This document shows positions 20,740-53,311 of a stretch of DNA of 64,000 nt, piece by piece. Source of the stretch: a virus; IMG/VR virus record IMGVR_UViG_3300045988_182790. One strand, written 5' to 3'. The notes under the pieces were generated by a model. That model searched no databases, was not told where the DNA came from, and was given only the letters and a program-made list of their open reading frames with translations. Positions within the stretch are counted from its first letter, which is position 1. Each line of letters starts with the position of its first letter. The position numbers and the translations under genes are program-made.

Positions 20740-20936
20740 ATCTTTTTCCTGCTACTCAAAATGTGATTAAATATACTCATCACATCGAGAAATTGTAAGT
20801 TCTCACGAACATTACTTACTGCTTCATCGTGTATGTTCTCGATTGGATAAATCCATATCTACTAACAGGTTCTTGTACACTCCACAGTCGTTAATTCCTG
20901 CGATAGCCCGCAGTACATACTTACGTTTGCGTTTAA

Positions 20937-22115
20937 TTATGCAACTTCGTAAGTTATAGCGTCTCTCAAATTAAGACTTGCATTGAAATCCCTATCTTCA
21001 ACATAGCCACATTTACATCTGTAAACTCTATCTGAAAGCTTTAAATCTTTCTTGATACAGCCACAGCAATGACAAGTTTTTGAAGATGGATAAAATCTAT
21101 CTACAATTCTTAATTCAATACCATTATCATCGCATTTAGCTTTAAGCTTTGTTCTAAACTCATAGAATTTCTGCGATGCAACAGCTTTTGAAAGATGTCT
21201 GTTCTTCATCATTCCTGATACATTCAAATCTTCAATCGTTATGTAAGATGGCTTGGTTTTCACTATCTCAGCGATTGTTTTATTGATATAATCGGTACGG
21301 ATATTATCCATTTTATGATGAAGTTTCTGTACTTTGAGCTTTTGTTTCTGTATATTCGCTCTTTGAGTAGTCTCTCCTTTCTTTAAATTTTCATATTTAC
21401 GAGAAAGACTTCTCTGTTCTCGAATTAATTGTTTTTCCAGTTTCTTAACTTTGCCAGACTTGTTAATGTTCTTGTATTTTTTGCCATCAGAAATGATAGC
21501 AAAGTCCTTCAATCCAAGGTCAATTCCAATTCCTTCATTCGAATTATTGGCAATTTCAGGATTAGGTATTTCTACAAGAACAGATACATAATATCTACCA
21601 GCTTTTATTGAAACTGAACCGCTTTTTATCACATAACCATCTTTTGTCGTTGGGATGTATCCTTTTTCTTTGATACGCACCCAGCCAAGCGTTGGTATGT
21701 TAATTCTATGTCTTTCGCAATAACAATCTTTTGGATTATTTTTGACGAAATACATTTTCACATCGGACTTGTCTTTCTTTTTAAATTTTGGAAAGGCTGC
21801 TTGATGCTTAAAAAATTTTGTAAAAGCGGTACACCCATTTTCGATTGAGCGTTTTACAGACTTTGAGCTAACTTCTTTAATCCAAGAATATTCAGGATGA
21901 TTTGGAAGATATTCGTTGTTAAGCCAAACACTAAATGACTTACCACTCATAAACTTTTCACCTTTTGAGTAAAGCTCTTTGTTGTGAGCAAGATAGAAAT
22001 TGTAAACATATCTACAGGTTCCTATTGTCTTGTTAATTTTGACCTTTTGCTCTTCTGTTGGATTGATTTCTGTCTTGAAGCTCTTTAACTTTGTTGACTT
22101 GTTCATATTTTTCAC
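20937..22115 (-). CDS. tnpB: TnpB (OrfB_IS605, RuvC-like + zinc finger)
   Basis: C-terminal CHCCGC...CKCG zinc finger and DRDFNASLNL RuvC-III motif. Class-A motif at 22149-22161. Confidence 0.8.
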   Translation of the reverse strand: MKNMNKSTKLKSFKTEINPTEEQKVKINKTIGTCRYVYNFYLAHNKELYSKGEKFMSGKSFSVWLNNEYLPNHPEYSWIKEVSSKSVKRSIENGCTAFTKFFKHQAAFPKFKKKDKSDVKMYFVKNNPKDCYCERHRINIPTLGWVRIKEKGYIPTTKDGYVIKSGSVSIKAGRYYVSVLVEIPNPEIANNSNEGIGIDLGLKDFAIISDGKKYKNINKSGKVKKLEKQLIREQRSLSRKYENLKKGETTQRANIQKQKLKVQKLHHKMDNIRTDYINKTIAEIVKTKPSYITIEDLNVSGMMKNRHLSKAVASQKFYEFRTKLKAKCDDNGIELRIVDRFYPSSKTCHCCGCIKKDLKLSDRVYRCKCGYVEDRDFNASLNLRDAITYEVA

Positions 22116-22330: not shown

Positions 22331-22560
22331 TAATTTATGATATTTGATGTATTCATATATATACCTCCATGAGTATGTGTGAACACATTTAGTCACATCT
22401 GACAATATTTTTAATTACTTAGCGTTTCCTCCTTTATTATTTTGTTCAATATGGTCTAAAAGAATATGAGATTTGCAAATAAAAATGGCTCAAAACGCTC
22501 TAGAAACGCTTTAAGCCACTTTTTTATTGTTTAGTCCTCCAAGCAAAACTAAACAATTGT

Positions 22561-22637
22561 GAGTACCAGTCGGACTCGAACCGACATCTGCAAAGGGAAT
22601 GAACCTTTATACCCTACCATTGGATGATGGATACTCT
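22561..22637 (-). tRNA. tRNA-like element (CAT anticodon, Met/Ile2-like), imperfect cloverleaf
   Basis: Acceptor GAGTATC/GGTACTC (7 bp). T-arm GTCGG-TTCGAGT-CCGAC. Anticodon arm AAAGG-TTCATTC-CCTTT. D-arm ATCC-AATGGTA-GGGT. There are 1-2 extra nt at several junctions and T at position 37, so it may be a pseudo-tRNA. Confidence 0.35.
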
Positions 22638-24709: not shown

Positions 24710-24738
24710 TCAAAAATGGGAGATGTTATTCTCCCATT
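24710..24738. terminator. bidirectional terminator between convergent paralog-module genes
   Basis: AATGGGAGAtgttaTTCTCCCATT followed by T6. Confidence 0.5.
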
Positions 24739-25334
24739 TTTTCATAAATAAAATCAATTGTATCAGCATTAACCATTATATTGCAAAAATAGCAAAGGCT
24801 AATAATGTACATCGAACAAACATCTTTTTGTTCAAACTTCTCCTTCATTAAAGTTAATACTGCAGCAAATGTTTTTACTAATTCCTCTTTGCACTCTATA
24901 ATGTCCGCATCTAATGAAAAGCTTAATAATGGTAGTATGGGAATTGTAGGGCCAGCTTTATTAATTCCATCCTCTGTTGCGCCAATTTTTCCCATATTAT
25001 CTGAAAAAATAAGAATTACTTCTGCGATTTCTTTTGATAAATAAGCAATTTTTTCTCTATCTGTTTCTTTGCTTAGTTGGGTGTTTAATTCTTCCAGTCT
25101 GTTTAAAGTATTTTCAATATCTTGAAATACATCACCTGTTGAAAATAATCCCTTTTTCCAACGTTCTATTCTAATATCTGTCTCTTCTACTGGCAAAGAT
25201 AAAACATCATGCAATGCATCTATAAAATCTGTGTCACCACTACCTTCTTTATTTAGGTCTTTTATTTCACTTTTTCTGAGCTTGTGTAAAATTTCTTTTC
25301 TCTTTTCGCGGACTTCTTTTTCACTATATTCCAT
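24726..25334 (-). CDS. paralog family L protein (about 200 aa; track ORF extends to 25547)
   Basis: Likely start MEYSEKEV (ATG at 25334) after GAGGTGGAGAT. Shares KSEIKDLNKEGSGDTDFIDALHD and RWKKGLFS blocks with the 37480-38049 and 57289-57867 proteins. Confidence 0.5.
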   Translation of the reverse strand: MEYSEKEVREKRKEILHKLRKSEIKDLNKEGSGDTDFIDALHDVLSLPVEETDIRIERWKKGLFSTGDVFQDIENTLNRLEELNTQLSKETDREKIAYLSKEIAEVILIFSDNMGKIGATEDGINKAGPTIPILPLLSFSLDADIIECKEELVKTFAAVLTLMKEKFEQKDVCSMYIISLCYFCNIMVNADTIDFIYEKMGE

Positions 25335-25463
25335 ATCTCCACCTCTTTTTGTGTTCCTATTAATATTGTGGGCATTTTTTCGCGATAATTCAATGCTTAT
25401 TTTTCTTCCAAATTTCATATTCCTTATATCTAAAAAATTTAATATTGAATGGAGGAAATTATT

Positions 25464-25985
25464 ATGAGAATTGACACAATTAAAGGTATTATTGATGGGT
25501 TTTGCTATGCATCTATCGAGATGGAAGGCGGACACATCTCTCGTCACATTAAGTGTGAGGATGGATTTCTTATTGACAGGATTTTGTCAGAAAGAAAAGA
25601 GTTGGCAACGACATTTGATTGCAGTTCTGATGAGGCGGTTGAGCTTATCAAAACAGCTTGTCTTGACGAAGAATGGCAAATGCCAGAATGCATTAAAGAA
25701 TGGTTGGATGATGAGTCTGACCGTGATGATTATGCTTTCGATTTTGATTTTGACCATGTAATAGGGCATGGCTTCTTCAAAAAGGGATGGCATGACTGGA
25801 ACTCAGGCGTCGCCTACTGTTCTCGACTCACCGTGGTGTTAAGAAAGGTTGAACTCCGCGACGGAAGTGACACTTTTCGTGTTTATTCTGCTTATCCGAC
25901 AGTTACAGAGGAAGATATAGAGCGAACAAAGGCTCAGTCTATTAATGCAATGAATGTCAGGGCTGTTAGATATGCAATAGCTTAA
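25464..25985 (+). CDS. hypothetical acidic protein (174 aa)
   Basis: ATG at 25464 after GGAGGAAATTATT. Its promoter/RBS region is a 65-nt copy of the one in front of 24503. Confidence 0.5.
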   Translation: MRIDTIKGIIDGFCYASIEMEGGHISRHIKCEDGFLIDRILSERKELATTFDCSSDEAVELIKTACLDEEWQMPECIKEWLDDESDRDDYAFDFDFDHVIGHGFFKKGWHDWNSGVAYCSRLTVVLRKVELRDGSDTFRVYSAYPTVTEEDIERTKAQSINAMNVRAVRYAIA

Positions 25986-30848: not shown

Positions 30849-31205
30849 GTTTTGTCTCCTAACGTCTAATTTAGCATTTATAAGTTTATATATTTTTATC
30901 CATCAATGTATCGTATTCAGATGGACTCATTTCTGATAGAATACTTTTTAAAAAATTGCATTTTTCGGTAAAAGGGCAAACTTCGCAATCCTTTTGGTTG
31001 GTCTATTTTTACACTCTTCAACTAAATTCTTTACTTTCATGTAATTCCTTTCTGCCCAAGTGGGCTAAATCCTAATTTTAGAGTTATTTTAATTTTCTGC
31101 TACTTTTATAATTTCAATTTATTTATACATTAATATAGTAGATATATATAAAAATTTATCCAATAAAAAACAGAGATAGTTTTATCTACCTCTGCTTTTT
31201 TGTTC

Positions 31206-32786
31206 TTAGGAGAAATCTTCTTTATTATCGGTATTCTTTTTTGATACTGCTGGCTGTTTTGCTTCTGGCAGTTCAACCTTTACTTCATCAGGAATGCCAT
31301 TTACAGTGATGTTTTTGTTTACCTTGGCATCATATGTATTGGCTTTCATAATCTCTGTAAAATCAACACCTGTCGCCTCGGACATTGTATCGAAAATCTG
31401 TTTCATTACAACTGGAACGTTGTTTGAGATACCAGTAACCCCGCCGTCTCCAGTTCCACCACCATAAATTGATACATTATCAATAGATGCAAGTGGTTTT
31501 GCAATTTCTGCCGCCATTTGTGGCATGATGTTTACAATCATTTCTACCATAGCCGCGCCTGTATACTTCTTGTAAGCTTCGGCCTTCTTTTCCATCGCCT
31601 CTGCCTCAGCAAGTCCCTTCGCCTCGATAGCTTTAGCTTCTGCTTCACCGACTGCAGCAATACCTTCTGCCTCGGCACGTTTTACAGCAAGGATTCCTTC
31701 GGCTTCTTTTTTCTTTGCCTCTTTTTCAGCATCAGCCTTGATTTTTCTCACTTCGGCATCTTTTTGCTGTTCGTACTTATCGGCATCTGCCTGTCTCTGC
31801 TTCTCGATAAGTTCAGCTTCGGCTTCCTGCTGACGACGATATTTTTCAGCATCAGCTTTCTTTTTAATCTCCGCATTAAGAGTCTGCTCCATAACTTCTG
31901 CCTCTTTCTGGCGAAGCTCTACGGTACGTTCCTGCTGAGCAATATCAGCATTTACTCTTGTTGCTTCGATAGTTTTTCTCTGTTCCTCTTCCTGAATCTG
32001 ATAAGCCGCATCTGCAATAGCTTTCTTTGTATCAGATTCCTGCTTTAATTCTGCCTGTTTTATAGCGAGTTCATTCTGTTTTGCAGCAATCTCTGTTTCA
32101 GCCGCAACTCTCGCATCATTTGCCTCTTTTTCAGCCTGTGCTCTTGCAATAGCGACGTCTCTGTCAGCATTTGCTTTTGCGATGGAAGCATTTTTGCTAA
32201 TCTGAGCAACATTATCAATACCCATATTAACAATGACATCATCATTGTCTGAGAAATTCTGAACATTGAAAGATTTTATACTAAGACCCATTCGTTTTAA
32301 ATCTGGTTCTGCATTCTGAGTGACCAATTCACCGAATTTCTGACGGTCAGTAACCATTTCCTGTAGGTGCATTCTACCGACAATCTCTCTCATGTTGCCT
32401 TCAAGCACTTCTCTTGCAATGTTTCCAATTGCCTGAGGTGGTAAATTAAGGAAATTTCGTGCAGCGGTTTCAAGCATTGCTGGGTCATCAGCTTCTACTT
32501 GTACATTGACGTTTGCATCAACCATAATATTAATATAATCAGCTGTTGGTACTGGTGAAGATGTTGTAACTTCAACTGGAATAAGTTTCAATGACAGCTT
32601 GTCTTTCTTTTCCAGAAATGGAATTTTAACTCCAGCTCTTCCGATTAACACCTTGGGCTTTTTTCTTAATCCAGTAATAATAAATGCTTCATCTGTTGAA
32701 GCTTTTACATACCCACTTGCAAGAATAATTGCTAATAAAATTACCGCGACGGCGATAATAAAAACTACAGGACTAATAAAATTCAT
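31206..32786 (-). CDS. flotillin-like SPFH/band-7 membrane protein
   Basis: N-terminal TM helix, SPFH-like core, and a long A/E/K-rich coiled-coil (AEKEA...KAIEAKGLAEAEA) typical of YqiK/FloT flotillins. Confidence 0.75.
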   Translation of the reverse strand: MNFISPVVFIIAVAVILLAIILASGYVKASTDEAFIITGLRKKPKVLIGRAGVKIPFLEKKDKLSLKLIPVEVTTSSPVPTADYINIMVDANVNVQVEADDPAMLETAARNFLNLPPQAIGNIAREVLEGNMREIVGRMHLQEMVTDRQKFGELVTQNAEPDLKRMGLSIKSFNVQNFSDNDDVIVNMGIDNVAQISKNASIAKANADRDVAIARAQAEKEANDARVAAETEIAAKQNELAIKQAELKQESDTKKAIADAAYQIQEEEQRKTIEATRVNADIAQQERTVELRQKEAEVMEQTLNAEIKKKADAEKYRRQQEAEAELIEKQRQADADKYEQQKDAEVRKIKADAEKEAKKKEAEGILAVKRAEAEGIAAVGEAEAKAIEAKGLAEAEAMEKKAEAYKKYTGAAMVEMIVNIMPQMAAEIAKPLASIDNVSIYGGGTGDGGVTGISNNVPVVMKQIFDTMSEATGVDFTEIMKANTYDAKVNKNITVNGIPDEVKVELPEAKQPAVSKKNTDNKEDFS

Positions 32787-33016
32787 GTTTTTTTATTCCT
32801 CTCTTTTTTACTTTAATCGGTGTTATTTATTTTTTATTTTTATTTTTTGCTCAGCTCTTGGGCGACTTGCAGACAGCCATTCAAGGCTAGAATATATGTT
32901 TTTACCCATATAAAATCCTTTCATTTTGTTTGTTATGTTATGATAGTGGGCAAAAATTGGATTTTGTTTTAAAAAAAATAGCAAGAAATGTAAAAACATC
33001 TCTTGCTATTTTCGTT

Positions 33017-34372
33017 TTACACTAATCTATTGATGCCCTCTTTTGCAAGCGGACTTCTTACCGACTCAGAATTATCAAATGTAATCTGAGCACACAATTT
33101 GGAACCCTTCATCTTTTCTGCCGCAAAAACTAATCCATTATTCCATTTATCCAGTACTGGATTATCTATCTGATTAGGGTCTCCGCAGATAACAACTTTT
33201 GTTCCCTGTCCAGCTCTTGTAATAATATCTCTTATCTGAGAGCGTGTTGCATTCTGAGTTTCATCTACTATCAAATAACTGTTTGTAATAGAACGTCCCC
33301 TCATGTATGCTAAAGGACAGATTTCGATAATGCCAGTTTCAAACATATCCTCTATTTGCATCTGTATTTCTCGATTGTCTATATCCTTATTTTTACTACG
33401 AATAATTGATTGTAAATTATCGTAGAACGGAGCCATTAATGGGTTCATCTTCTCTTCCAAATCGCCTGGCAAATAACCAAAATCTGCATCGGCCATAACA
33501 TTATTTCGAGAAATAAGTATTCTGTCGTAAGAACGTTCCTTTTTACTGTTGTATACTTGGTCTAGTCCGCCAACCAATGAGAGGAAAGTTTTTGAAGTAC
33601 CTGCATTTCCCCTTAAAATAACAAAAGGTATTTCATCAACTGGAGCTAATAATGCGTGTAATGCAAAGTGTTGTGCAACATTTTTAGGTGTAATTCCGAA
33701 GGAATGAGTTTTCTTTGAGTCGATTAAGTTGATATTTCCGTTTTGATATATTCCTAAAAGCGACTGGTTGCCACATTTTATAGTAAGAAATTCATTCTCA
33801 ATGAAAGGTGGCTTCACATCATCAAACTCTCTAAGCTCAAGTGTTTTTTCTTTTACCAATTTTTCCATTGCAGCATAATTGTTTGTCTCAACAATTCTTC
33901 TGCCAAGATATGTTTCTTTATCAGAGGCTATTCTGTCATTTTTGTATGCCTGAACATTTTGATTTAATCCGCAGGCAGAAGCGTTTATTCGCATTGAAAT
34001 ATCGTTTGTTACTAAGATAACATTTTCGTCAGGATTATTTGCTTTTGCAAAAAGTGTTGTTCCAATAATTTGATTATCTGGCTTTTCTTTGCTATAGCTT
34101 GCTGGGAGAATTGATGTATCAGACTGTAAAATCATAAACTTTCCACCATTATCAAGCTCAACACCAGTGGTTAAATCTCCCTTTTCTCTTATTGCCTCAA
34201 GTAGTCTACAAGTCTCTCTTGCATTAAAACCAATATCATTGTGCAAATTCTTTTTTGAATCAAGTTCCTGCAGAGTTGTTGTTGTGATTGCAACGGTATT
34301 GTCTGCAAAACCAAAGATTGCATTTGGTGACTCTAGCAAAATGTTTGTGTCAAGAATGTAAGTTTTCTTCAT
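33017..34372 (-). CDS. PhoH2-type protein (N-terminal PIN domain + PhoH-like ATPase)
   Basis: PIN-like N-terminus (YILDTNILLE). Walker A RGNAGTSKT, Walker B LIVDETQN, and C-terminal KH-like region. Confidence 0.8.
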   Translation of the reverse strand: MKKTYILDTNILLESPNAIFGFADNTVAITTTTLQELDSKKNLHNDIGFNARETCRLLEAIREKGDLTTGVELDNGGKFMILQSDTSILPASYSKEKPDNQIIGTTLFAKANNPDENVILVTNDISMRINASACGLNQNVQAYKNDRIASDKETYLGRRIVETNNYAAMEKLVKEKTLELREFDDVKPPFIENEFLTIKCGNQSLLGIYQNGNINLIDSKKTHSFGITPKNVAQHFALHALLAPVDEIPFVILRGNAGTSKTFLSLVGGLDQVYNSKKERSYDRILISRNNVMADADFGYLPGDLEEKMNPLMAPFYDNLQSIIRSKNKDIDNREIQMQIEDMFETGIIEICPLAYMRGRSITNSYLIVDETQNATRSQIRDIITRAGQGTKVVICGDPNQIDNPVLDKWNNGLVFAAEKMKGSKLCAQITFDNSESVRSPLAKEGINRLV

Positions 34373-34388
34373 AAAGTGTGTCCTTTCT

Positions 34389-34595
34389 TTAGTCTATATC
34401 TTCCACGTCTTTATCGTAGTAAGGGTTCCAATCGCTTTCGTCTTCTGACTGCGAAAAAATATCATCGAGCGTGGCTTCGATTATCTTTTTGTGGATTTTG
34501 TATGCTAAAACTCCGACAACAGTTCCGCCGATTAAGGAACCAGTTAACAATGCGACAGATTTCTTCATAAAATGTCTCCTTTCTTTTTGTCCCAA
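34389..34595 (-). CDS. small membrane protein (68 aa)
   Basis: Single TM helix LLTGSLIGGTVVGVLAY with an acidic tail. Confidence 0.35.
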   Translation of the reverse strand: MGQKERRHFMKKSVALLTGSLIGGTVVGVLAYKIHKKIIEATLDDIFSQSEDESDWNPYYDKDVEDID

Positions 34596-34852
34596 TAATC
34601 TTTCATCCTTTTTGCGGCATCTTCTCTTTGTTCATCTGTCATCTCATGTGAATTTGTAAAGAGATGTAAATACTTGAGAGGCATATGTGCAACAATACAT
34701 TTGCCGCCATTGTCAGCAAGAATATCAATATCCTCTGGATGTTCTTTTTGTAGATTAATAACTTTATTTCTCCATTTTTCCTGAGAAAAGGTTACTGTTA
34801 TAGTTTGAGTGCCTGTAATCCACTCGATGACATTCTCTTTTATATCTGTCAT
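34565..34852 (-). CDS. hypothetical protein (95 aa)
   Basis: Intact ORF overlapping its neighbours by a few codons. Confidence 0.4.
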   Translation of the reverse strand: MTDIKENVIEWITGTQTITVTFSQEKWRNKVINLQKEHPEDIDILADNGGKCIVAHMPLKYLHLFTNSHEMTDEQREDAAKRMKDYWDKKKGDIL

Positions 34853-35091
34853 GTACCAAACTCCTTTCGTAATTTTTCTATTAGTTCTTCTGCTTCATCT
34901 CCGTAGGCAACAATCTTTACAGGGTTCATAAGGTTTAGACTATATATCCCAAGAATGGAATGGCCATCTACAACATACTTGCCCTGAGATGCGTCTATGG
35001 AGCAGGTAAATTTGTTTACTATGTTTATGAACTCAGCTACTTTTTCAAATTGGTTGATGTAAATAACTGTTTCTGTATTTTTGTGTGTCAT
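34849..35091 (-). CDS. HPr/Crh-like phosphocarrier-fold protein lacking the His15 equivalent
   Basis: KYVVDGHSILGIYSL compares to HPr KSVNLKSIMGVMSLG (Ser46 region). VKIVAYGDEAEELIEKL compares to VTITVDGADEAEGMAAI. No His in the N-terminal loop. Class-B motif CTATAGTGGGTAAA 17 nt upstream. Confidence 0.4.
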   Translation of the reverse strand: MTHKNTETVIYINQFEKVAEFINIVNKFTCSIDASQGKYVVDGHSILGIYSLNLMNPVKIVAYGDEAEELIEKLRKEFGT

Positions 35092-35129
35092 AAAAGTTCC
35101 TTTCTACTATAGTGGGTAAATTGGTTGTT

Positions 35130-36341
35130 CTATCTAACAGAAATTGACGGTATATCGCAAGAACAAATACAATACCGCTTATCTTCTGAAATAGTTCCAT
35201 TTGCAACATTCACTGCGTGTTTATCTATTGTTTTTTCATAAATGTTTCTTACTGTTCTTGCGTTGCCAAAATTTCTTTGCCTTTGTTCGTATTTCATTCT
35301 CTCAACAAATTCTTTTAGGTAATCCGTTGACACCTTATATCCGTTTGTATGAGCCAGCTTCAAAAACATTTCTTGGAAGTTTTTCATCGAATAATTTCCA
35401 AACCACAAATAATGTTTAATTCGAGAGGCGATGCCTGGATTGGAATTAATGAAATTTTTCATTTCCGTCTCATAGCCAGCAAAAATGAATACAATATCAT
35501 CTCTATGGTCTTCCATTTCTTTGATAAGTGTTGCTATTGCTTCATCTCCGCCACTTCCTGTAAGCAATGCGTAGGCCTCGTCAATAAACAAAACGCCCCC
35601 CATACTCTTTTGAATGAGCATAGATGTTTTCTTTGCGCTTTCGCCTACATACCTCCCCTTAAGAAAGTTTCCATCGACTTCAACACACTGATTTTTCCTA
35701 ATATATCCATTCTGATACAAAAATCCTGCCATAATACGAGCAACAGTTGTTTTTCCTGTGCCTGCTGGCCCCATAAAAATCATGCTCATCGAATCTGTTG
35801 GATGAAATTGTCCTTTACCGCCGTCATCTTTCCATTTTTGTTTTTCAAACTGCATCTTTGCAATCAGCTCATTCATCATTGTTTTGGTTTCTTCCAAACC
35901 GATTAATTTATCCAATTCTTCCTGCGGATTTTTAACACCTTCATGGGTGATTTTTCGCATTGTTGCAGAGTCTAATGTTTTTTCTGACTCCATCATGCGT
36001 TGACGCTCTATTACATCCCTATCTTTACCAGACATTTTTTTTAAGCTGTTGTACTTTTTACTGTTTCCATTTTCGTCATATTCAACTTCATCTCTAAGGC
36101 TTTGTCTTGACTTGGTTAATATTGGGTATAAAACTATTCCAGCAATGGCAAGCATTGAGAATAAGACAATATACAGTGTTGAAAAATCTCTTTGAATTTC
36201 TCCACTTGATGTAGTAAATCCGCCTAGTGTTCTTTCAGTTAGCAAAAAATACAGTGCTCCAACAATGCCGCCGATAATTGCAAGAATATCAAGAACTGAG
36301 CCAAGAATTACTGCGTAGTATTTAAGTTCTTTATTTGTCAT
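35130..36341 (-). CDS. membrane-anchored AAA+ ATPase of the SpoVK/CbbX family
   Basis: Two N-terminal TM helices. Walker A GPAGTGKTT, Walker B VLFIDEAYAL, and the SpoVK/CbbX-type C-terminal helical lid. Confidence 0.8.
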   Translation of the reverse strand: MTNKELKYYAVILGSVLDILAIIGGIVGALYFLLTERTLGGFTTSSGEIQRDFSTLYIVLFSMLAIAGIVLYPILTKSRQSLRDEVEYDENGNSKKYNSLKKMSGKDRDVIERQRMMESEKTLDSATMRKITHEGVKNPQEELDKLIGLEETKTMMNELIAKMQFEKQKWKDDGGKGQFHPTDSMSMIFMGPAGTGKTTVARIMAGFLYQNGYIRKNQCVEVDGNFLKGRYVGESAKKTSMLIQKSMGGVLFIDEAYALLTGSGGDEAIATLIKEMEDHRDDIVFIFAGYETEMKNFINSNPGIASRIKHYLWFGNYSMKNFQEMFLKLAHTNGYKVSTDYLKEFVERMKYEQRQRNFGNARTVRNIYEKTIDKHAVNVANGTISEDKRYCICSCDIPSISVR

Positions 36342-36356
36342 AAAAATATTCCTTTC

Positions 36357-36998
36357 TTAGAATGACAAACCGTCATATTCCTTTTGCATGGCAATAAATG
36401 ATTTTTCATCTCCGCAACCCATATCTGGATGAAAAGCTTTTGCAAGGGCTTTATATCTCCTATCAGCCTCTTCCTTTGTTTTGCATCCAGAAAAATAAGC
36501 GGAAGTAGGATTTGATTTAGAGGAATAGTTTTCAGTAAAGGTTTTTCTTTCTTCGTTTCCTTCATTTCTTTGGTATTCTGGAAAGATTTCATCCAGACTT
36601 TTTGTAAGATTTTTCATGGAAGACAACGCAACGGAAAGACTTTTCAGAGAATCCATGCAGTAAAAGTTATGTTCTATTTCAGATTTTGCATTGATGATTG
36701 TGTTTTCAGCGATTACTCTAAGGCGTTCATATTCTTCTTCTATATCTCCCAGCATTGACAAGGAATTAGAGTCACACATTCGTATACACTCATTTTTCTT
36801 GTTATTAAATTTGATTTCAAAAGTTTGAATAATATTGTTGTATTTATCTATGCAGTGATTTAGTTCATCAATATTTCTTTTTGCGTTCATATACTCTTCG
36901 TTTGAAGAGATATTTTTCTTTTGTTTTGGTTTTGTTGCAGTTAACAAAAATAATGCAGACATGACACAAATGACAATAAAAATATAAATTCCAACCAA
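36357..36998 (-). CDS. membrane-anchored J-domain (DnaJ-like) protein
   Basis: N-terminal TM helix (TTG start). C-terminal J-domain YKALAKAFHPDMG containing the HPD tripeptide. Confidence 0.65.
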   Translation of the reverse strand: MVGIYIFIVICVMSALFLLTATKPKQKKNISSNEEYMNAKRNIDELNHCIDKYNNIIQTFEIKFNNKKNECIRMCDSNSLSMLGDIEEEYERLRVIAENTIINAKSEIEHNFYCMDSLKSLSVALSSMKNLTKSLDEIFPEYQRNEGNEERKTFTENYSSKSNPTSAYFSGCKTKEEADRRYKALAKAFHPDMGCGDEKSFIAMQKEYDGLSF

Positions 36999-37220: not shown

Positions 37221-37439
37221 ATGGTATTTTTCAAAAAGATTGAACAGGAAATTTCAAAGCCGCACATAAGGGCTGGGCTAAAACCTACAATTGAGCACGA
37301 ACTTCGCAAGATGACGGACACGAAAACTGATGCCGCCAGTGAACAATTCAAGAATCTTCTTATCACTTGGGGTTTTGCTGACAAGAATTTTGCTGTTACA
37401 AGGAAAGATTTGGAGCAAATACTCAAAATGATTGGATAA
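37221..37439 (+). CDS. small protein, paralog family S (72 aa)
   Basis: Paralog of 24503-24709. Promoter region AAATTTCATATTCCTTATA is shared. Confidence 0.5.
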   Translation: MVFFKKIEQEISKPHIRAGLKPTIEHELRKMTDTKTDAASEQFKNLLITWGFADKNFAVTRKDLEQILKMIG

Positions 37440-37440
37440 A

Positions 37441-37478
37441 CAAAAAGCGGAGGAGCATCGCCCTTCCGCTTTCTTTTT
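37441..37478. terminator. bidirectional terminator
   Basis: GCGGAGGagcatcgCCCTTCCGC followed by a T-run, between convergent genes. Confidence 0.5.
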
Positions 37479-37479
37479 G

Positions 37480-38049
37480 CTATTTATCACACATTTCTTT
37501 TATTGTTCCAGCATTTACAGATATATTTGTATAATATACAAGAGAATAAACAAGTATATTGTCATAATTTTCATTTTTTATTGCTTGCTTAGTTACCTCA
37601 AGAACATTTTTTGTAAATGCTATAAATTCTGCTATTGCATCCAACAAAGGAGTATTGTCCATTATATCAATAGGCACTAAGGTTAAATTTGTTTCTTCGT
37701 CTGTGTAACACTCAATTGTTGTTAATGTGTTTGCCAGAATAAGAATTGTATCAATAATGTTTTGCATTATTGTCACAATAATATTTTTATCTTGCACGTT
37801 TGACAAATCATTGTTAAGGCACTCTATTTTGCTTACAATAGAAGCTATATCTTCTAGCTTATCTTCTTTTTCTGGCAATCCTTGTTGCCAACGAAGCTTT
37901 TTCTCAGATGGTATATTTTCTGTATCTGTATCAGAAATCATTAATTTGATTCCATCAATAAAGTCTTCACCTGCTCCAGAAATATTGTTTATATCTTTTA
38001 GTTCGCTTTTGTGAAACTTTCTTTTAATTTCTTTTATCTTATCAGTCAT
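37480..38049 (-). CDS. paralog family L protein (189 aa)
   Basis: Shares KSELKDINNISGAGEDFIDGIKL and RWQQGLPE blocks with the 24726 and 57289 proteins. Confidence 0.5.
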   Translation of the reverse strand: MTDKIKEIKRKFHKSELKDINNISGAGEDFIDGIKLMISDTDTENIPSEKKLRWQQGLPEKEDKLEDIASIVSKIECLNNDLSNVQDKNIIVTIMQNIIDTILILANTLTTIECYTDEETNLTLVPIDIMDNTPLLDAIAEFIAFTKNVLEVTKQAIKNENYDNILVYSLVYYTNISVNAGTIKEMCDK

Positions 38050-38202: not shown

Positions 38203-40479
38203 TTACATGGCTACGATTTTTACGTCGTACCCATTCTCTGTTAATCTACCAACGACATCTGTAGATACTGTGAACTCTGTCTGACTTATATCAGACATTT
38301 CCTGCGTGTAAATTCTAAAGAAAAGTCCTGTTGTAAGGTCTGTTTCTTTATATCCCTGCGCAAAATTATAGATATTACACATATCTTCAATAGTTGGCGC
38401 AACAGCAAGAATTATTTTTGCCTGCTTATCAAGGACATTAAAGCTGTCAATAACAATCTGGTCTTCACCATTATTATCTGTGTCTTTATGTCCAATGATT
38501 TTTGTGATTGTTCCTGACTGAATGAGATTTTGATATTTCTCATAGGTTTTAGGAAAGCAAACGCCACTGATACTCTCTCCATCTTTGTCAGTGATTGTTA
38601 CAAATGCCATTTTGTCACCTTTTTTGGTTTTAATAACCTTTGCATCAGTGATGATTGCTGCCATTTTGACATTCGCTTTTTCATCTGCATTAACAATATC
38701 ATTGATAATCATGAGATTTGCGGTATCATAATCCTCTAAAGGATTTCCAGTAACCCACATTCCAAGAGCATCTACTTCTAAAAGAAGTCTTTTTTCTGTA
38801 GATAATGGGGCAACGTGTTTCTTTATAATACCTTTCATCTCATCACGAAGAATACTAAGTTCTCCCTGATATTTTCTAAGGTCAAGAACACGTTTGTTTT
38901 CCGCTTTCTCGTTTGTATATGACTGGTTTTCAAGCAAAGATATTTTTTCAATCTTCGTTTTAGCTTTTTTCCATACATCATCATAAGCCACAACATCAGT
39001 TGCACTTATTTCTCTGTTGATTGTGAAATCATCGCAAGCTCCAGAGTTAATAAGTTTTGCCACACAAGAAGCTCCGATTGTTGTTTTTTCAACAATCTCT
39101 TCGATTGAACGGAAATTGCCAGCTTTTTCTCTGTCTGCAACCAATACTTCTGCCGCACTCTTTAACCCTTTGATTGCTTTAAATCCTATTATGATGCCAT
39201 CTTTATATGGGTAATAATCTGCTTTGGATTCATTAATGTCTGGTCTATAAAGAGTGATGTTTGAAGCTTTACAATCAGCAACAAGCTGAGCTGTTTTGTC
39301 TGGTTGCCAGCCTATTATTGCGCACAAATATTCGCGCTTATAATGATATTTAAGCCATGCTGTAATATAAGATACAAGCGCATATGCTGCAGCGTGGGAT
39401 TTATTGAAACCATATTTAGCGAAAGGCATTAACTGGTCAAATAACCAATTTGCATCCTCTTCTGAAATATTTTGAGTTTCTTTACATCCTGTTACGAAAT
39501 CTGGTCTGACAGCGGCCAACTCTTCCTCATGTTTTTTGCTCATATGTCTTCTAACATTATCAGCATCACCCATGTCAAAGCCTGCCGCAGTTGTCATAAT
39601 GCTCATTACCTGCTCCTGATATACTGGGAACCCATATGTTTCAGACAAAATTGGTTCAAGAAAAGGGAATTTCTCCACAAATGGAGATTTTCTTCCAGTA
39701 TTCTTACAGTCAATAATGTCATCAATAAAATCCATTGGGCCAGGTCTGTATACAGAGATAGCAAGGATAATATCTTCGAAACAAGTAGGGTTAAGTCTTG
39801 TTAGCATCCCCTTCATTCCATCAGATTCTACCTGAAATACAAAGTTTGTATCTCCTTTAGCGTAAATATTCTGGAACACTTCTGTTTCAAAAGGAAGATT
39901 ATATGGCTCAATCTTTATGCCCTTTGTTTCGGTGATAATATGCATTGCATCAGTAATAGCATTAAGGTTTTTAAGCCCTAAGAAGTCCATTTTGATAAAT
40001 CCTAACTGGCCTTCGCACTGAACCATATCTGCTTGAACAGCAAATACTTCATTTCCATCATCATCGTTTGATTTCATAAGAGGTATATAATTCTCTACGT
40101 CAGTTCCATCAGAAATAATAATTCCTGCGGCGTGTGTTCCGTATGATGTTATATAGTTCTCAATCATCATTGCATAATCAATGATTGTCAGCGCTGTTTC
40201 ATTGCCGCTAAATTCAGCTTTCAACTCGTTTTCGTAATTAACGAGTTTTGCATTTGGTTCATCACCGATTAATTTACGCATTGACTTGTAAATGGAAATA
40301 TATTTCTTTTTATCTCCGCTCTCTTCAAGTCCAAGAAGCTTTGGTGCGTACTCAAGCGCGCTTTTTGCAGCAAGACGATTTTTTGTCATAATGTTTGCCA
40401 CAGAACGTTCACCGTATTTTTCCTTGACATATTTGATAGTGATTTCTCTTGCATGAGCTGAGAAATCTGTGTCAATATC
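38203..40479 (-). CDS. dnaE: DNA polymerase III alpha (DnaE-type) exon 2
   Basis: Begins DIDTDF (DnaE consensus DIDIDF). Contains GFNKSHAAAYALVSY (DnaE FNKSHSAAYA motif), fingers/thumb regions, and a C-terminal OB-like region. Confidence 0.85.
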   Translation of the reverse strand, partial: DIDTDFSAHAREITIKYVKEKYGERSVANIMTKNRLAAKSALEYAPKLLGLEESGDKKKYISIYKSMRKLIGDEPNAKLVNYENELKAEFSGNETALTIIDYAMMIENYITSYGTHAAGIIISDGTDVENYIPLMKSNDDDGNEVFAVQADMVQCEGQLGFIKMDFLGLKNLNAITDAMHIITETKGIKIEPYNLPFETEVFQNIYAKGDTNFVFQVESDGMKGMLTRLNPTCFEDIILAISVYRPGPMDFIDDIIDCKNTGRKSPFVEKFPFLEPILSETYGFPVYQEQVMSIMTTAAGFDMGDADNVRRHMSKKHEEELAAVRPDFVTGCKETQNISEEDANWLFDQLMPFAKYGFNKSHAAAYALVSYITAWLKYHYKREYLCAIIGWQPDKTAQLVADCKASNITLYRPDINESKADYYPYKDGIIIGFKAIKGLKSAAEVLVADREKAGNFRSIEEIVEKTTIGASCVAKLINSGACDDFTINREISATDVVAYDDVWKKAKTKIEKISLLENQSYTNEKAENKRVLDLRKYQGELSILRDEMKGIIKKHVAPLSTEKRLLLEVDALGMWVTGNPLEDYDTANLMIINDIVNADEKANVKMAAIITDAKVIKTKKGDKMAFVTITDKDGESISGVCFPKTYEKYQNLIQSGTITKIIGHKDTDNNGEDQIVIDSFNVLDKQAKIILAVAPTIEDMCNIYNFAQGYKETDLTTGLFFRIYTQEMSDISQTEFTVSTDVVGRLTENGYDVKIVAM

Positions 40480-40886
40480 CATTCATACCCTCGGTTTCCC
40501 GATATTTTGACTTTTAGGGGACTAGACTATATCTCGCTATTTAAAATAGCATGATGCACTTCGGTTAAGTATTCATCTCTTAACCTACTCTACTCGATTC
40601 GTCCTTAATAGGCTTATTCTCTTATTACTAAGAGTTACATTTATTAGTTCTTTCGATAGTCGTTACACTTTTGTTTATAATGTAATAAACACTTAGCACG
40701 GTATCACCTGCTATCTGTTTCCAGACCGTAGGCTCTCTTACGAAGCGGATTCGTCTATGGATTAAGCTGTATATCTCGTTGTGACGCTTCATACAGCAGT
40801 CTTATCTAGCTTCTACCGTTAGCACGTAACTCTTAGGCTACGCACACCCTTGAAAAAAGGTTCACATCATACGCCCAATATAGTTT
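40480..40886 (-). other. group I self-splicing intron (ORF-less, about 407 nt) in dnaE
   Basis: Exon 1 ends ...RVSMP (cct) and exon 2 starts DIDTDF, restoring the conserved RVSMPDIDxDF. Intron GGGCGT 11 nt in can pair with exon AUGCCU to form P1 with a U·G at the splice site. The last intron nt is G. AGATATAGTC is present (group I S-element-like). Confidence 0.65.
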
Positions 40887-42533
40887 AGGCATACTAACAC
40901 GATGAGGATTAAGAAATCGCTCAAACAAAAGATTGTATTTCATTGGGTCTATTTCTGAAATATCACTTAAATAACAAGCAAGCGAACCTCCCGCACTGCC
41001 TCGGCCTGGCCCGATTTCAGTTGAATTATCTCCATGACTTTTTGCATACTGAATGAAGTCAGCAACCTCGCAGAAATAATCATTAAAGCCCATCTGGTCA
41101 ATGATACTTAACTCGTATTCAAGTCTTTCCCTGTATTCCTTTGAAAATCCGTTTGGATAACGTTTAGGAATACCATCCTCACAAAGCTTACGAAGTCTTT
41201 CCTTTGCATTTTCAAACTTCGGATAATGTTTTGCGTCAGAAAGTTCTGGATTACACATTTTGGCGATAACTTCAATGTTTCCCATCGCTTCATCAACAAC
41301 ATCTTCTGGATAAAGCTGTAATAACATTTCAGCTAATTCATCGCCTGTTTTGAAATACAATTCATCATCGCCTGTAATAGCTTCTCGCCAAGGTCTATCC
41401 TGAGAAATTGACGCCAGATTTTCAAGAAGAAGTCTCTTCTTTGCATCTGTCTTATTTGCCATGTGGACATCATTTGTGGCCACAAGCGGAATATTCATTT
41501 CTCTTGCAAGTTTGACTATTACTGGATATATCATGGCTTCTGTATCTATGCCATGGTACTGAATTTCACAATAAAAGTCTGACTCAAAAACATCTACGAA
41601 AAACTTTGCGTACTTTTTACCCACAATGTAAAGTTCATCATCGTTTTTCTTTCTGGCCTCTAACAATGCAATTGCATCTTTATTCTTCTGAATAGTTTCC
41701 AATTTGGTCTTGTTCTTCGAAATAAGATTTTTGTTTGCTTTGTTATTGTTTTTTATTTCTTGTATTTGAGCCTTAAGAGATGAAATCTCATCCTTTGCTT
41801 CTTGTGCCTGAGCTTTTTCAATCTCAAGCGCTGCAAGCTTGAATTCTCTTTCTTCACTATCTTTGATTTTCTTGATTGCATTTTGTGTGGCACCAAATTT
41901 CTTTGATGCAATCGGAGTTAATTCTGCAATCTTTTCATTGATAGCTAGGATTTGCTTTTCTGCGACAGCATTGGATTCAAGAGCCTGTTGCAATCCGTCT
42001 GACAAATTGGATTTCGAAGATTCAATTCGATTTTGGATTTTTCTAATCTCTTTATCAATAAACAGATTGTAAGATAATGGTGTTGCTAATACTCCGCCAA
42101 CGCAGGCACTTGTTGCAACAACGTGTCCATACCCTAACGAGCCTTTACCGAAAAATTTCTTCAAATCCTTTAATTCGCCTACTGGTCTGCCAGAAATAAA
42201 ATTTCGATTTGTTTCTGATACAAACCTTGAGATTGCCTGAATACCTTCATAATCTTTTGCTAAAAGAACTAGATGTGCTCTCTTTTTTATTATGAAAGTT
42301 TCAGTTACAGGGATTTCAGTGTTGATATAAGCTTCAACACCAAGAATTGGTTTAATGTCATTCTCTTTGGCTGCATTATAAAAATCAAGCCAATTCCAAC
42401 AGCCTCCATGGTCTGTTATGGCTATAGCAGGCATTTTTAATTCTTTAGCCTTGCTGATACATTCTGATACAGTCATAGCTCCGTCATTGAGCGACGCATC
42501 AGTATGTACGTGTAGATTGATATTTGTTTTCAT
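40887..42533 (-). CDS. dnaE: DNA polymerase III alpha (DnaE-type) exon 1 (PHP domain with coiled-coil insertion)
   Basis: PHP motifs HVHTDASLNDGA and ITDHGG. Ends GGSLACYLSDISEIDPMKYNLLFERFLNPHRVSMP. K/E-rich insertion of about 130 aa inside the PHP domain. The track ORF continues into the intron to 40833. Confidence 0.85.
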
Positions 42534-49813: not shown

Positions 49814-50127
49814 CTAAATCTTCCTGCCTGCCATAATTCACAAATGATTGCAATTGGAACAAATACATATATATATCCAAAAGTTATCATATGTGTCTTA
49901 GTGTCTGTGACAGCTGAAATATGAAGAAATGTCATTGCTGCAGTAAGGAATATTGCTGTTTGCAATGATACAACTAATAGTAATAATGATGATGTTATAT
50001 ATGCCATCATAAGAGACAGGATTTCATTTGACGTTAATGAAATCCTATACTCTTTATCATGTTTGATATCATACACACCATAACAAAGCAATCCTGCGTA
50101 TACTGGGAGTAAAATACTGTTAATCAT
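49801..50127 (-). CDS. small polytopic membrane protein, possible TadV/CpaA-type prepilin peptidase
   Basis: Three TM helices with conserved-position Asp (YDIKHD, VTDTK). Sits in the Tad operon, but GGGD-type motif not seen. Confidence 0.35.
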   Translation of the reverse strand: MINSILLPVYAGLLCYGVYDIKHDKEYRISLTSNEILSLMMAYITSSLLLLVVSLQTAIFLTAAMTFLHISAVTDTKTHMITFGYIYVFVPIAIICELWQAGRFSCWT

Positions 50128-50815
50128 TTTTTACCCTTACCATTGTTACGTCATTATCTCCAGCCGCATCATAGAATTTAGCTACATCATCTCGTTCCAT
50201 TTCAATTACGAAATACAATGCTGTCGAAGTAGTATCATTGCTCTGAATTTCTAGGTATGAAGAGTCATAAGATGCAACAATATACACGTTTGAAAGTAAC
50301 AGTTTGTTTGTTTTATGAATTGTATCTTCTTCTGTACCTTCCGCAATATACAAATCTACAACATCTCCAGCTCTGATATAACCGTTTACAGCACTATCTG
50401 CTCTTGAGACTGCGAATGATACCTCTACAGGGTCTTTAATGTTGCTATTGATTGTTGAGGAATCTTTTACTTTTGTAGATGAAAGAATTTCTCCTTTTGA
50501 TACTGGAGTAATAAGTCTTCCTGTGATGTCATCAAGCGATGTATATGTGGTTGTTGTTATAAGAGCGGAATTGACTGACTCAATGCCAAAATAGTCTTTT
50601 ACATTTTTTGAGGAGATAATCGTTCCTTCCTCAATATCTTTTAGTGCATACACGGCTGGAGAAATGTCTTTATCCGTGAGGACATATGCTTGAGCGGCGG
50701 TTAAACCTACCCAAACAACAAGTCCAACCACAAGTGTTACAGCCCATTTTGTCAATGACTTGCTGACGGTATGTTCTTTCTTCTCTTTAGTTCTACTTTT
50801 GCCTTTTTTGAACAT
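50120..50815 (-). CDS. CpaB/RcpC-like pilus assembly protein
   Basis: N-terminal TM anchor plus SAF-like domain (ALKDIEEGTIIS). Confidence 0.5.
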   Translation of the reverse strand: MFKKGKSRTKEKKEHTVSKSLTKWAVTLVVGLVVWVGLTAAQAYVLTDKDISPAVYALKDIEEGTIISSKNVKDYFGIESVNSALITTTTYTSLDDITGRLITPVSKGEILSSTKVKDSSTINSNIKDPVEVSFAVSRADSAVNGYIRAGDVVDLYIAEGTEEDTIHKTNKLLLSNVYIVASYDSSYLEIQSNDTTSTALYFVIEMERDDVAKFYDAAGDNDVTMVRVKND

Positions 50816-50832
50816 ATCTTACACCTCTTTAT

Positions 50833-51105
50833 TTAGTTGAAAATTCCAAGAATTTTGCTACTAAGCTTTCCCATAAATGAATCGGCTCCTGGTGCGCCAC
50901 TCTCATAATCGCTGTTTCCAAAAATAATGTAGGTTAAAGCTTTTCCAAGTGCTAGGATTACGAGAATGATTACGAAGATAATTACAATTTTCCCAATCAA
51001 ATCAGACTCGCCAGCCTTTTTTGTTTTGATACTTTCAATGGCATCATCGACCATCATATTAGCTTTTGTTTTTGTTGAAATAATAAGGTTGTCCAGTTTC
51101 TTCAT
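50833..51105 (-). CDS. Flp-family pilin-like protein (90 aa)
   Basis: Short protein with central hydrophobic stretch GKIVIIFVIILVILALG after a Gly. Sits in a Tad operon. Atypical leader. Confidence 0.3.
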   Translation of the reverse strand: MKKLDNLIISTKTKANMMVDDAIESIKTKKAGESDLIGKIVIIFVIILVILALGKALTYIIFGNSDYESGAPGADSFMGKLSSKILGIFN

Positions 51106-51181
51106 GGTTGTTATAAAGTCCTTTCTATTATTGTTTTAAAATTGTTACATAATATATATGAAATATAAAAAATAGGGTTAA

Positions 51182-51901
51182 TCACGACGCAGGCTCGATT
51201 TGTGAAAAGCTTTCTATCTGTATTCGCCTTGAGAATACCTCATCACTTAAGGATATGAATGCTTTTGGCAAATCCAAGTCAAAAGAAAATACTGCGTATA
51301 CTGTAGGAAGATGCAAGTCACTTCTTCTATGTGTACTAAACGGTGAACCTGATAATGTTCCTGATGTGGAGGTTCTTTTCTGGATTGATACTGAACTGAA
51401 ATCTTTATGTTCAGAACCATTAACAATTTGCATCATATTGATATTGCTAACTCTGTATTCAACTAAAGTAGTACCTACATAATCATATATATAAAAATCA
51501 TCAACAGTAAAATCTCTTACATTCAACTGATTAGCGGCCCAGCCAACGTTTCCACCGCTAAAACCAGTTGGTGTAATTCCCATTGTTGTTGTGAGGGATG
51601 ACAAATATTTATGTAATCTGTCATACACCTCAGCTCGTTCTTCGTCTGAAACCGTTATGCTGGATGCGTCTGCGGAGCCTATTATTTGAAATTTTCTATT
51701 TGACCTATATTCATCCGCATTGATTACTGCAGCGGACATTGTTGCAGAATCAGCATCATTTCGTATATTCTCACTTAAAATTTCAGCCGCGCGAAGATAC
51801 AAGCCTAAACAAAGAAACATTATCATAAAAAAGACAAAGAACATGGATATTAACATGACTGCAAAGCCTTTTTTCTTCTGTTTTACAATTCTTTTTATCA
51901 T
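51182..51901 (-). CDS. TadE/TadF-like pseudopilin
   Basis: Basic N-terminus plus hydrophobic helix FAVMLISMFFVFFMIMFL, as in TadE-like proteins. Confidence 0.45.
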   Translation of the reverse strand: MIKRIVKQKKKGFAVMLISMFFVFFMIMFLCLGLYLRAAEILSENIRNDADSATMSAAVINADEYRSNRKFQIIGSADASSITVSDEERAEVYDRLHKYLSSLTTTMGITPTGFSGGNVGWAANQLNVRDFTVDDFYIYDYVGTTLVEYRVSNINMMQIVNGSEHKDFSSVSIQKRTSTSGTLSGSPFSTHRRSDLHLPTVYAVFSFDLDLPKAFISLSDEVFSRRIQIESFSQIEPAS

Positions 51902-51906
51902 AATTT

Positions 51907-53308: not shown

Positions 53309-53311
53309 ACG

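Follow-up and report, generated by a model that had tools for sequence, protein, structure and literature searches.

A conserved gene pair for a putatively membrane-anchored AAA+ ATPase and a J-domain protein in plasmid-like elements of gut Lachnospiraceae

We analyzed a 64-kb stretch of DNA filed as a virus (IMG/VR record IMGVR_UViG_3300045988_182790; hereafter the window), which is a portion of a 100.3-kb gut-metagenome contig (ENA ERZ27229639 k119_147736). Its GC content is ~34% and its minus strand carries nearly all of the genes. The subject of this report is a pair of adjacent genes in the window, one for an AAA+ ATPase with two predicted transmembrane (TM) helices and one for a protein ending in a J domain. 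The pair is specific and strongly conserved; the five other genes that accompany it in the window are variable add-ons.

Gene content and transcription units of the locus

Seven consecutive open reading frames (ORFs), all on the minus strand and each preceded by a GGAGG-type ribosome-binding site, make up the locus. The first in the direction of transcription encodes the J-domain protein (213 aa, 36357–36998), followed by the AAA+ ATPase (403 aa, 35130–36341), a Crh/HPr-like protein (80 aa, 34849–35091), orf95 (34565–34852), which received no assignment and overlaps each neighbor by 4 bp (ATGA), a small acidic membrane protein (59 aa from its ATG, 34389–34568), a PIN-PhoH protein of the PhoH2 type (451 aa, 33017–34372) and a FloT-like flotillin (526 aa, 31206–32786). 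A sequence-only reading of the window, made before this analysis, had listed these genes and their domains; all are present, and profile searches upheld the SPFH, PhoH, PIN, HPr and AAA calls, the J domain being treated separately below.

Intrinsic terminators were located by reading the intergenic sequence for a hairpin followed by a U-run, and were then checked by folding. Three were found on the minus strand: one directly after the PhoH2 gene (32966–33016, hairpin plus U8, dG −22.1 kcal/mol, z −10.2), one 3′ of flotillin (31160–31205, dG −17.9 kcal/mol, z −7.3), and one 3′ of an upstream gene for a 189-aa protein, marking the upstream boundary of the unit (37434–37479, dG −18.3 kcal/mol, z −3.6). 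Intergenic distances from the J gene through the PhoH2 gene are only 15, 38, −4, −4 and 16 bp. From the short gaps and the three terminators we therefore predict one six-gene operon (J, AAA+, Crh-like, orf95, small TM protein and, last, PIN-PhoH2) plus a separate monocistronic flotillin unit. Transcription as unrelated units had been named as an outcome that would undo the idea of a module; by this prediction it applies to the separately terminated flotillin, and not to the other six genes.

Rfam searches detected no leader RNA upstream of the operon. A divergent 72-aa ORF with a strong ribosome-binding site (37221–37439, plus strand) lies 222 bp upstream of the J gene and could encode a regulator of the operon. 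The terminator at 37434–37479 is bidirectional, serving both this ORF and the convergent 189-aa gene (37480–38049). Two paralogs of the 189-aa protein are encoded in the window, at 24726–25547 and 57289–57867 on the minus strand (E = 1e-16 and 7e-6). Neither the 72-aa nor the 189-aa ORF matched a family in PHROGs or NCBIfam.

The AAA+ and J-domain genes form a conserved pair

We compared ten lineages of related loci: the window, L006, L002/L089, L007-9/L255, L010, L035, L090/91, L092, L173 and L256. Their AAA+ proteins are only 37–69% identical from one lineage to another, and in 10/10 an ORF with a C-terminal HPD-containing J domain stands beside the AAA+ gene on the same strand. All 17 of the TM-type AAA+ loci that were scanned had such an ORF, same-stranded, within 1.3 kb, and it was found also in L255 and L256. 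In L007, L090 and L256 the stop and start codons of the two genes overlap or abut; the arrangement suggests that the pair is probably translationally coupled.

As a control we took 159 other, generic SpoVK/CbbX-like loci, which had been recovered by scanning metagenomes and viruses with the full AAA+ alignment. None (0/159) had an HPD J-domain ORF within 3 kb, against 10/10 when the pairing is counted by lineage (Fisher p = 2.5e-16). J domains were detected with a generic J-domain hidden Markov model (HMM) and an HPD filter; a narrower J HMM missed the divergent J protein of L173. The zero among controls does not reflect a failure of sensitivity, because the same generic HMM detects canonical DnaJ in host loci. 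The AAA+/J-domain pair that the sequence-only reading had picked out is thus real, conserved and specific.

The AAA+ ATPase

The AAA+ protein has AAA and AAA_lid_6 domains (PF00004 plus PF17866). Its best curated families were spore_V_K (4e-62), CbbX (2e-53) and EccA (2e-46), with scores far under each equivalog cutoff (209.6 vs 422.95, 181.8 vs 459 and 155.7 vs 466 bits, respectively). It carries the motifs GPAGTGKT, VLFIDEAY, FAGY (sensor 1), NPGIASR and GNARTVRN (with the sensor-2 Arg), and Walker A, Walker B, AGY, NPG..SR and GNAR..R are kept across 102 homologs. By its Walker A and B motifs, GY sensor-1, arginine finger, sensor-2 Arg and AAA_lid_6, we class it as a member of the SpoVK/CbbX/EccA clade. 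Full-length homologs are many, at ~400 aa and 44–69% identity.

What sets the family apart lies at the N-terminus, where two TM helices with an extracytoplasmic loop of ~20 residues are followed by a conserved juxtamembrane motif, LRDEVEYDENG.SKK. The N-terminal module with this motif (LRDE.EYDENG.SK) is rare: among 1.84 billion representative clusters, only 97 have it. An AlphaFold2 (AF2) model, at a predicted local distance difference test (pLDDT) score of 86.3, has helices at 3–34 and 53–87, a short linker domain and a canonical AAA+ module. Foldseek placed CbbX far ahead among structural matches to the model (E = 6e-21, TM-score 0.75), followed by FtsHi/FtsH, proteasomal and Vps4-type ATPases. 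The protein is predicted to be anchored in the membrane, with its ATPase module in the cytoplasm and its ATPase motifs intact.

We rejected assignment to any of the nearest named proteins. The refuting outcome set for the AAA+ gene in the sequence-only reading, an ordinary sporulation SpoVK of the host chromosome, did not hold: the score is below cutoff, a TM hairpin replaces the SpoVK N-terminal domain, and the gene sits in a plasmid backbone. CbbX proper is excluded by a score below cutoff and by the lack of Rubisco genes in the window; the window copy has the Tyr that is rare in the rest of the family. EccA proper is excluded by its score, by the lack of a tetratricopeptide repeat (TPR) domain and by the lack of ESX/Ess genes in the window. 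The anchor and AAA+ module of FtsH are present, but the chain ends after the lid (residue 403), with no Peptidase_M41 match.

Some longer members of the family (P0003, P0004, P0276, P0287 and P0306, 650–765 aa) combine the same TM/juxtamembrane module with two tandem SpoVK-like AAA+ modules. P0003 comes from an 817-kb contig of an Agathobacter metagenome-assembled genome.

The J-domain protein

The J protein of the window has a TM helix at its N-terminus, continues with a helical hairpin and ends in the J domain, of which helices II and III are present and HPD occupies residues 190–192. The J-domain call of the sequence-only reading fared unevenly in profile searches: the window copy scored 16.2 bits against Pfam DnaJ, below the cutoff of 27.8, and orthologs exceeded it (36.7, 34.2 and 28.6 bits). 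A profile of six orthologs matched the E. coli DnaJ J-domain (1bqz, 5nro; E = 1.3e-5) in an alignment that spans helix II, HPD and helix III, and the AF2 model has helices at 175–189 and 198–209 (pLDDT 76–84).

Overall identity among the J proteins of the ten lineages is merely 12–45%, with HPD and its flanking residues invariant. The last ~45 residues are nearly invariant (F.GC.TK.E...RYK.LAK.FHPD..G....F..M..EY). In eight of the J proteins the N-terminal TM helix is followed by Lys/Arg, so the J domain would be cytoplasmic. The L173 protein is unrelated, has a Zn-ribbon-like N-terminus and is encoded downstream of the AAA+ gene; its J domain was apparently recruited independently. The L256 protein has no TM helix.

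The plasmid J domain is closest (~50% identity) to the J domain of a polytopic membrane J protein of the host chromosome, which fits use of host DnaK. By this resemblance the chromosomal protein is the likely source of the plasmid J domain. It occurs in Lachnospiraceae and Acetatifactor (e.g. L014:8969-10231; loci L014–L086) and is ~420 aa long, is predicted to have 6–7 TM helices and ends in an HPD J domain, with no other Pfam domain detected. Where seen, it adjoins canonical dnaJ on the opposite strand, with no AAA+ gene beside it. A scan of genomes with the J alignment recovered mostly this chromosomal protein and is silent on co-occurrence of the pair. A different J protein, with two TM helices, was noted in Lachnospiraceae bacterium MC2017 (L074:9473-10159), two genes upstream of a type IV secretion system (T4SS) coupling protein and an unsplit DnaE, with no TM-type AAA+ within the 20-kb locus. 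Membrane J proteins may be more general in these plasmid backbones.

Companion genes

The neighbors of the pair were followed across the same lineages. Flotillin matched Band_7 (PF01145, 1e-20) and Flot (PF15975, 5e-9) and scored 291 bits on the FloT equivalog (cutoff 700). SPFH proteins cage FtsH, and FtsH has the same two-TM-plus-AAA+ layout as the window AAA+. With flotillin just 230 bp downstream of the operon, all seven genes could be imagined as a single membrane-raft system in which flotillin scaffolds the AAA+ and J proteins as HflK/C cages FtsH. We consider this very improbable. Strong terminators flank the flotillin gene on both sides, and it is absent from all nine other lineages within flanks of at most 10 kb. 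Its nearest homolog (80% identical) sits on a contig that looks chromosomal, with ABC-transporter, MatE and Na/H-exchanger genes around it, and the window flotillin is 60–69% identical to many Lachnospiraceae flotillins. Since its closest homolog is chromosomal, flotillin looks like captured host cargo. On these grounds we rejected an HflK/C-like cage for the AAA+ as a conserved feature, and consider the raft system largely refuted as a conserved unit.

The PIN-PhoH protein recurs more widely. It matched PIN_4 at residues 5–137 (1e-25), PhoH at 227–445 (5e-51) and phrog_2765 (4e-102). Against the NCBIfam PhoH2 equivalog it reached 216 bits (cutoff 680), and it has the domain layout of that family, PIN fused to a PhoH NTPase. 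Five lineages have PIN-PhoH2 with the pair: the window, L006, the L002 type, L010 (3 kb off) and L092, where it lies between J and AAA+ with overlapping codons. The small acidic protein, whose start is an ATG overlapping the upstream stop (ATGA), has a Gly-rich TM helix and a strongly acidic C-terminal tail. A protein of this design directly precedes PhoH2 in three lineages: the window, L006 (66 aa) and L002 (113 aa).

These arrangements raise the alternative that the locus is a PhoH2-centered RNA or toxin-antitoxin-like module, in which the acidic membrane protein holds or inhibits PIN-PhoH2 in the manner of PhoAT or VapB, and J/DnaK and the AAA+ control stability or release of the inhibitor as in a toxin-antitoxin-chaperone system, for plasmid addiction or conflict. 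Mycobacterial PhoH2 has RNase and helicase activity and is co-transcribed with PhoAT, a small protein that is encoded upstream and interacts with it (PMC7390352), and in eukaryotes SpoVK-EccA-clade members occur fused to superfamily 1 RNA helicase domains (PMC11513918). We think this alternative unlikely, since PhoH2 is absent within 10 kb of the pair in L007/L009, L035, L090, L173 and L256. Moreover, no homology to PhoAT was detected for the small acidic protein, which was compared with it by position only, the Walker A of these PhoH2 proteins departs from consensus (GxxGT[SA]KT; GNAGTSKT in the window), and PADLOC returned no system-level match.

The Crh/HPr-like protein matched PF00381 above cutoff (28.2 bits vs 23). 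It has no His at the His15 position (N13-Q14-F15, with Q14 placed by extrapolated alignment), and Arg17 is absent, in line with the His-less HPr fold proposed for it. Its Ser45 (GHSILG) aligns with Ser46. With His15 missing and the Ser46 equivalent kept, we describe it as Crh-like. This gene and orf95 were found only in the window and L006. In three lineages the AAA+ gene is directly followed by EAL or EAL+GGDEF genes (L090:11259-14815, L092:11214-13015 and L256:11174-12232; GGDEF present in two of the three), which hints at a link of the pair to surface functions controlled by cyclic di-GMP. The seven genes had been proposed as one module; what we find is a core of two genes that is conserved, a PhoH2 gene that recurs as an accessory, additions confined to particular lineages, and flotillin as cargo.

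The carrier elements

Relatives of the window, at 34–43% GC, share a backbone of primase (Zn-ribbon plus DUF3854), DnaE, J protein with AAA+, a ParM-like protein (ALP_N) and HU. They also encode a T4SS coupling protein of the TraG/VirD4 type, PrgI and a VirB4-like ATPase. The hosts that the records name belong to the Lachnospiraceae and include isolate KHCPX20 (L010) and MGYG-HGUT-00136. Primase, DnaE, the ParM-like protein, T4SS coupling protein, PrgI and VirB4 together argue that the carriers are conjugative and plasmid-like, not phages; judged by this gene content, we class them as large conjugative plasmid-like elements of gut Lachnospiraceae.

The window came from a viral database, and the sequence-only reading had suggested virion assembly or host takeover among the possible roles. 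A device of a large phage would comport with the presence of relatives L173 and L255 in IMG/VR, with PHROG families that have AAA+ and J-like members (phrog_4339 and phrog_15863), and with the known phage-encoded J protein Rki of RB43 (PMC3486835). Profile searches, PHROGs included, gave no match to capsid, terminase, portal or tail families among the large ORFs of the window. GenBank phages showed DNA similarity to the window only in short 70% patches and have no TM-type homolog of the AAA+, and the single AAA+ protein as query returned no close IMG/VR relatives. The relatives carry T4SS coupling protein, PrgI, VirB4-like and ParM-like genes, and similar gut megaplasmids are misfiled in viral databases (PMC12934698). 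With a plasmid-like replicon and no phage structural genes detected, virion assembly is unlikely, and we give a phage device of any kind a very slim chance.

Position within the backbone favors a role in replication or maintenance. DnaE immediately precedes the pair in the window, L002, L006, L007, L090 and L256, and ParM-like partition genes come after the pair. In L010, the one relative with a Rep_3 initiator, the pair is <2 kb from that gene. DnaK/DnaJ and Clp ATPases monomerize RepA, RepE and TrfA. For RepA and RepE, it is the dimers that Hsp70 monomerizes (PMC8215388). The pair might thus be a replication or maintenance chaperone that remodels the plasmid initiator or replisome, making initiation free of host co-chaperones, possibly at a membrane-attached site. 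A soluble DNA-binding client, however, does not explain why the AAA+ has a membrane anchor in every lineage. In addition, no Rep_3 gene was detected in the window, the pair is not beside DnaE in L092 and L035, and adjacency in a one-strand plasmid backbone is weak functional evidence. We regard this alternative as doubtful.

DnaE (Pol III alpha) itself is often in two ORFs in the relatives, sometimes with an HNH endonuclease gene between them. In the window the two are at 38203–40482 and 40833–42533 on the minus strand, with a 350-bp spacer (40483–40832), and correspond to a PHP/N-terminal part and a finger/helix-hairpin-helix/OB part. The gap holds an HNH (NUMOD4/HNH_3) endonuclease ORF in L007 and L090, and a group II intron reverse transcriptase is nearby in L002; DnaE is unsplit in L256 and L074. 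Rfam found no group I intron in the spacer of the window. The split could reflect an intron, the remnant of an intein or a polymerase that truly has two subunits.

Other genes of the window include helicases of the RecD2, UvrD and SNF2 types. A cluster resembling Tad/Flp, for a pilus or for secretion (50120–55710, minus strand), encodes a CpaB/RcpC-like protein (SAF plus RcpC), a membrane protein that is T2SSF-like and an ATPase of T2SSE/CpaF-like type. A 430-aa PARP-like protein with the PARP catalytic domain (3.5e-20; 9109–10401, minus strand) is conserved at L092:16489-17784; UvrD and a giant S8 subtilase (59652–63938 in the window; at least 1941 aa in L092) are also common to both. Two TnpB genes were noted. 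One, OrfB_IS605/Cas12f-like TNB (20937–22115, minus strand), has a RAGATH-18 RNA directly downstream (20816–20888, minus strand, 72.8 bits); the second is at 55975–57246 (minus strand). A tRNA-Met gene lies at 22559–22636 (minus strand), and a 1512-aa glucosaminidase-domain protein is encoded just beyond the window. The large ORFs left without assignment matched nothing in PHROGs or NCBIfam.

Proposed function of the pair

We propose that the pair is a two-gene chaperone of the plasmid backbone, in which the J protein would bring host DnaK to a membrane-bound, narrow-client AAA+ remodeler; we put the probability of this at about one half. The two-helix N-terminal hairpin would hold the AAA+ at the cytoplasmic face of the membrane. 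The class-C J protein usually has a helical stalk and a TM helix of its own; through its J domain it would draw in host DnaK (Hsp70) and set off the ATPase of DnaK, and J protein, DnaK and AAA+ ring would together make a membrane-localized Hsp70/AAA+ remodeling station. An invariant HPD J domain is most naturally read as recruiting Hsp70 to the membrane, as the sequence-only reading had already suggested.

Cooperation on a narrow membrane client is suggested by the behavior of the clade. SpoVK-EccA ATPases are described as narrow-client chaperones with variable N-terminal recruiting domains and as sister to FtsH; the known clients pair SpoVK with MurG, CbbX with Rubisco and EccA with type VII secretion system (T7SS) substrates (PMC11513918). 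Its known members act on one or a few dedicated clients and do not pass them on to a protease. Having no protease partner, the window AAA+ is therefore probably a narrow-client remodeler as well. Its client would be expected in the element's own membrane-proximal machinery, candidates being the assembly or substrates of the T4SS or a surface apparatus, and the replication/partition complex, whose genes flank the pair. By analogy, the membrane anchor and the links of the clade to envelope and secretion would favor the transfer or surface apparatus as the client site; the recurrent PhoH2 allows an RNA or toxin-antitoxin-like role.

Several observations weigh against this proposal. The pore-loop-1 aromatic (Y231, equivalent to CbbX Y114) is Ser/Thr/Asn in ~90% of the AAA+ family, so classical substrate threading is doubtful for most members. 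The J domain of the window is sub-threshold in Pfam and lacks helix IV, and AF2 modeled the J protein as a whole with low confidence (pLDDT 55.6), insufficient for a fold search. The J partners in L173 and L256 are without a TM helix, so co-anchoring is not obligatory. The genes next to the pair vary, with PhoH2, EAL/GGDEF and a 146-aa protein among them. On the window's own contig, the ~74 kb examined yielded no T4SS coupling protein, and we judge the contig putatively conjugative by its synteny with the relatives. Finally, DnaK binding and recruitment, physical contact between J protein and AAA+, and the nature of the client are steps that we infer from the sequences.

A bolder form of the chaperone proposal is possible, and we advance it tentatively: the pair may define a novel kind of chaperone machine at bacterial membranes, in which an FtsH-like SpoVK-clade ring without a protease works with its own J protein and host DnaK, and which would be carried by large Gram-positive conjugative plasmids to unfold, extract or load membrane clients such as T4SS substrates or components. 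In that case the plasmid would bring along its own equivalent of EccA in T7SS, or of translocation motors coupled to Hsp70, which would help it to work in many hosts. As a backbone feature of poorly studied Lachnospiraceae elements, the pair is probably needed for their maintenance or spread. It opens the question of which membrane-proximal step of Gram-positive plasmid biology needs chaperone power. Because the AAA+ family is small (the 97 clusters above) and specific, the client should be identifiable, and with two genes the system is a simple one in which to study Hsp70 coupling to a non-Hsp100 AAA+ remodeler.

Comparison with known systems

We found no description of the TM-AAA+/J pair in the literature, PLSDB, GenBank phage records or PADLOC, in agreement with the earlier remark that the combination was not a recognized system. 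Full-length TM-type AAA+ proteins were absent from PLSDB plasmids and GenBank phage records. AAA+ matches in PLSDB cover the ATPase module only, in proteins with soluble N-termini (Finegoldia pFMC, L. mucosae), and J matches there are only the J domains of Bacillus plasmid proteins. PADLOC called no defense system, with weak P-loop-level matches only (IetA 3e-6, Nhi 2e-6).

Among replicons, Hodor megaplasmids (PMC12934698) resemble the carriers by description: they are large replicons of gut Bacillota with ParM-like genes, a VirD4/VirB4 T4SS, TnpB and surface-protein modules, and are often misfiled as phages. They differ in GC content (44–47%, against ~34% for the window on its 100-kb contig), in size (>300 kb), and in their Rep_3/ParA/ParB genes and multiple sortases, whereas relatives of the window carry their own primase and (often split) DnaE. 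The Hodor paper never mentions DnaJ, AAA, PhoH or flotillin. For the companion genes, PhoH2/PhoAT (PMC7390352) is similar in its PIN-PhoH fusion and in the small gene immediately upstream in the operon; the window differs in its equivalog score, in its Walker A, and in an upstream protein that is TM-anchored with an acidic tail.

DnaK-DnaJ-ClpB offers the same concept as our proposal, a J protein and Hsp70 that target and cooperate with an AAA+ remodeler (PMC4598581, PMC8215388). ClpB, however, is soluble, with two AAA+ rings, a DnaK-binding M-domain and substrate threading by aromatic pore loops, whereas the window AAA+ has one ring, no M-domain and a membrane anchor, and belongs to a family in which the pore-loop aromatic is mostly missing. 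FtsH and the protease-dead FtsHi (Ycf2-FtsHi) share the N-terminal two-TM hairpin and an AAA+ ring at the cytoplasmic or stromal face. The window AAA+ differs from FtsH in having no M41 protease domain, a 20-residue outer loop, other clade signatures, and a J partner in place of HflK/C.

The J protein is comparable to DjlA and DjlB/C of E. coli, Pam18 and Sec63, with an N-terminal anchor, a spacer and a C-terminal cytoplasmic HPD J domain. Such membrane class-C J proteins are expected to localize Hsp70 activity at the membrane (PMC8215388, PMC10754441). Outside the J domain the window protein is unrelated to the DjlA type; it lacks helix IV, is plasmid-encoded and is genetically coupled to an AAA+ gene.

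With the SpoVK/CbbX/EccA clade (PMC11513918) the window AAA+ shares AAA_lid_6, AGY, NPG..SR and GNARTVRN, and CbbX is its best match among solved structures. It differs at the N-terminus, where a two-helix anchor and juxtamembrane motif replace the small beta/alpha domain of SpoVK and the TPR/beta-helix domains of EccA (CbbX has none), and also in being plasmid-borne and J-paired, with the pore-loop aromatic mostly lost in its family. The paper that defines the clade makes no mention of J-domain pairing. The pair thus extends this narrow-client clade to a membrane-tethered form. Its two members are best placed among the AAA+ ATPases of the SpoVK-EccA clade and among membrane J proteins of class C, respectively, DjlA being an example of the latter. 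Both protein families are already well known; what is new, as far as we found, is the obligatory pairing of a dedicated J protein with a membrane-anchored AAA+ of the SpoVK/CbbX/EccA clade.

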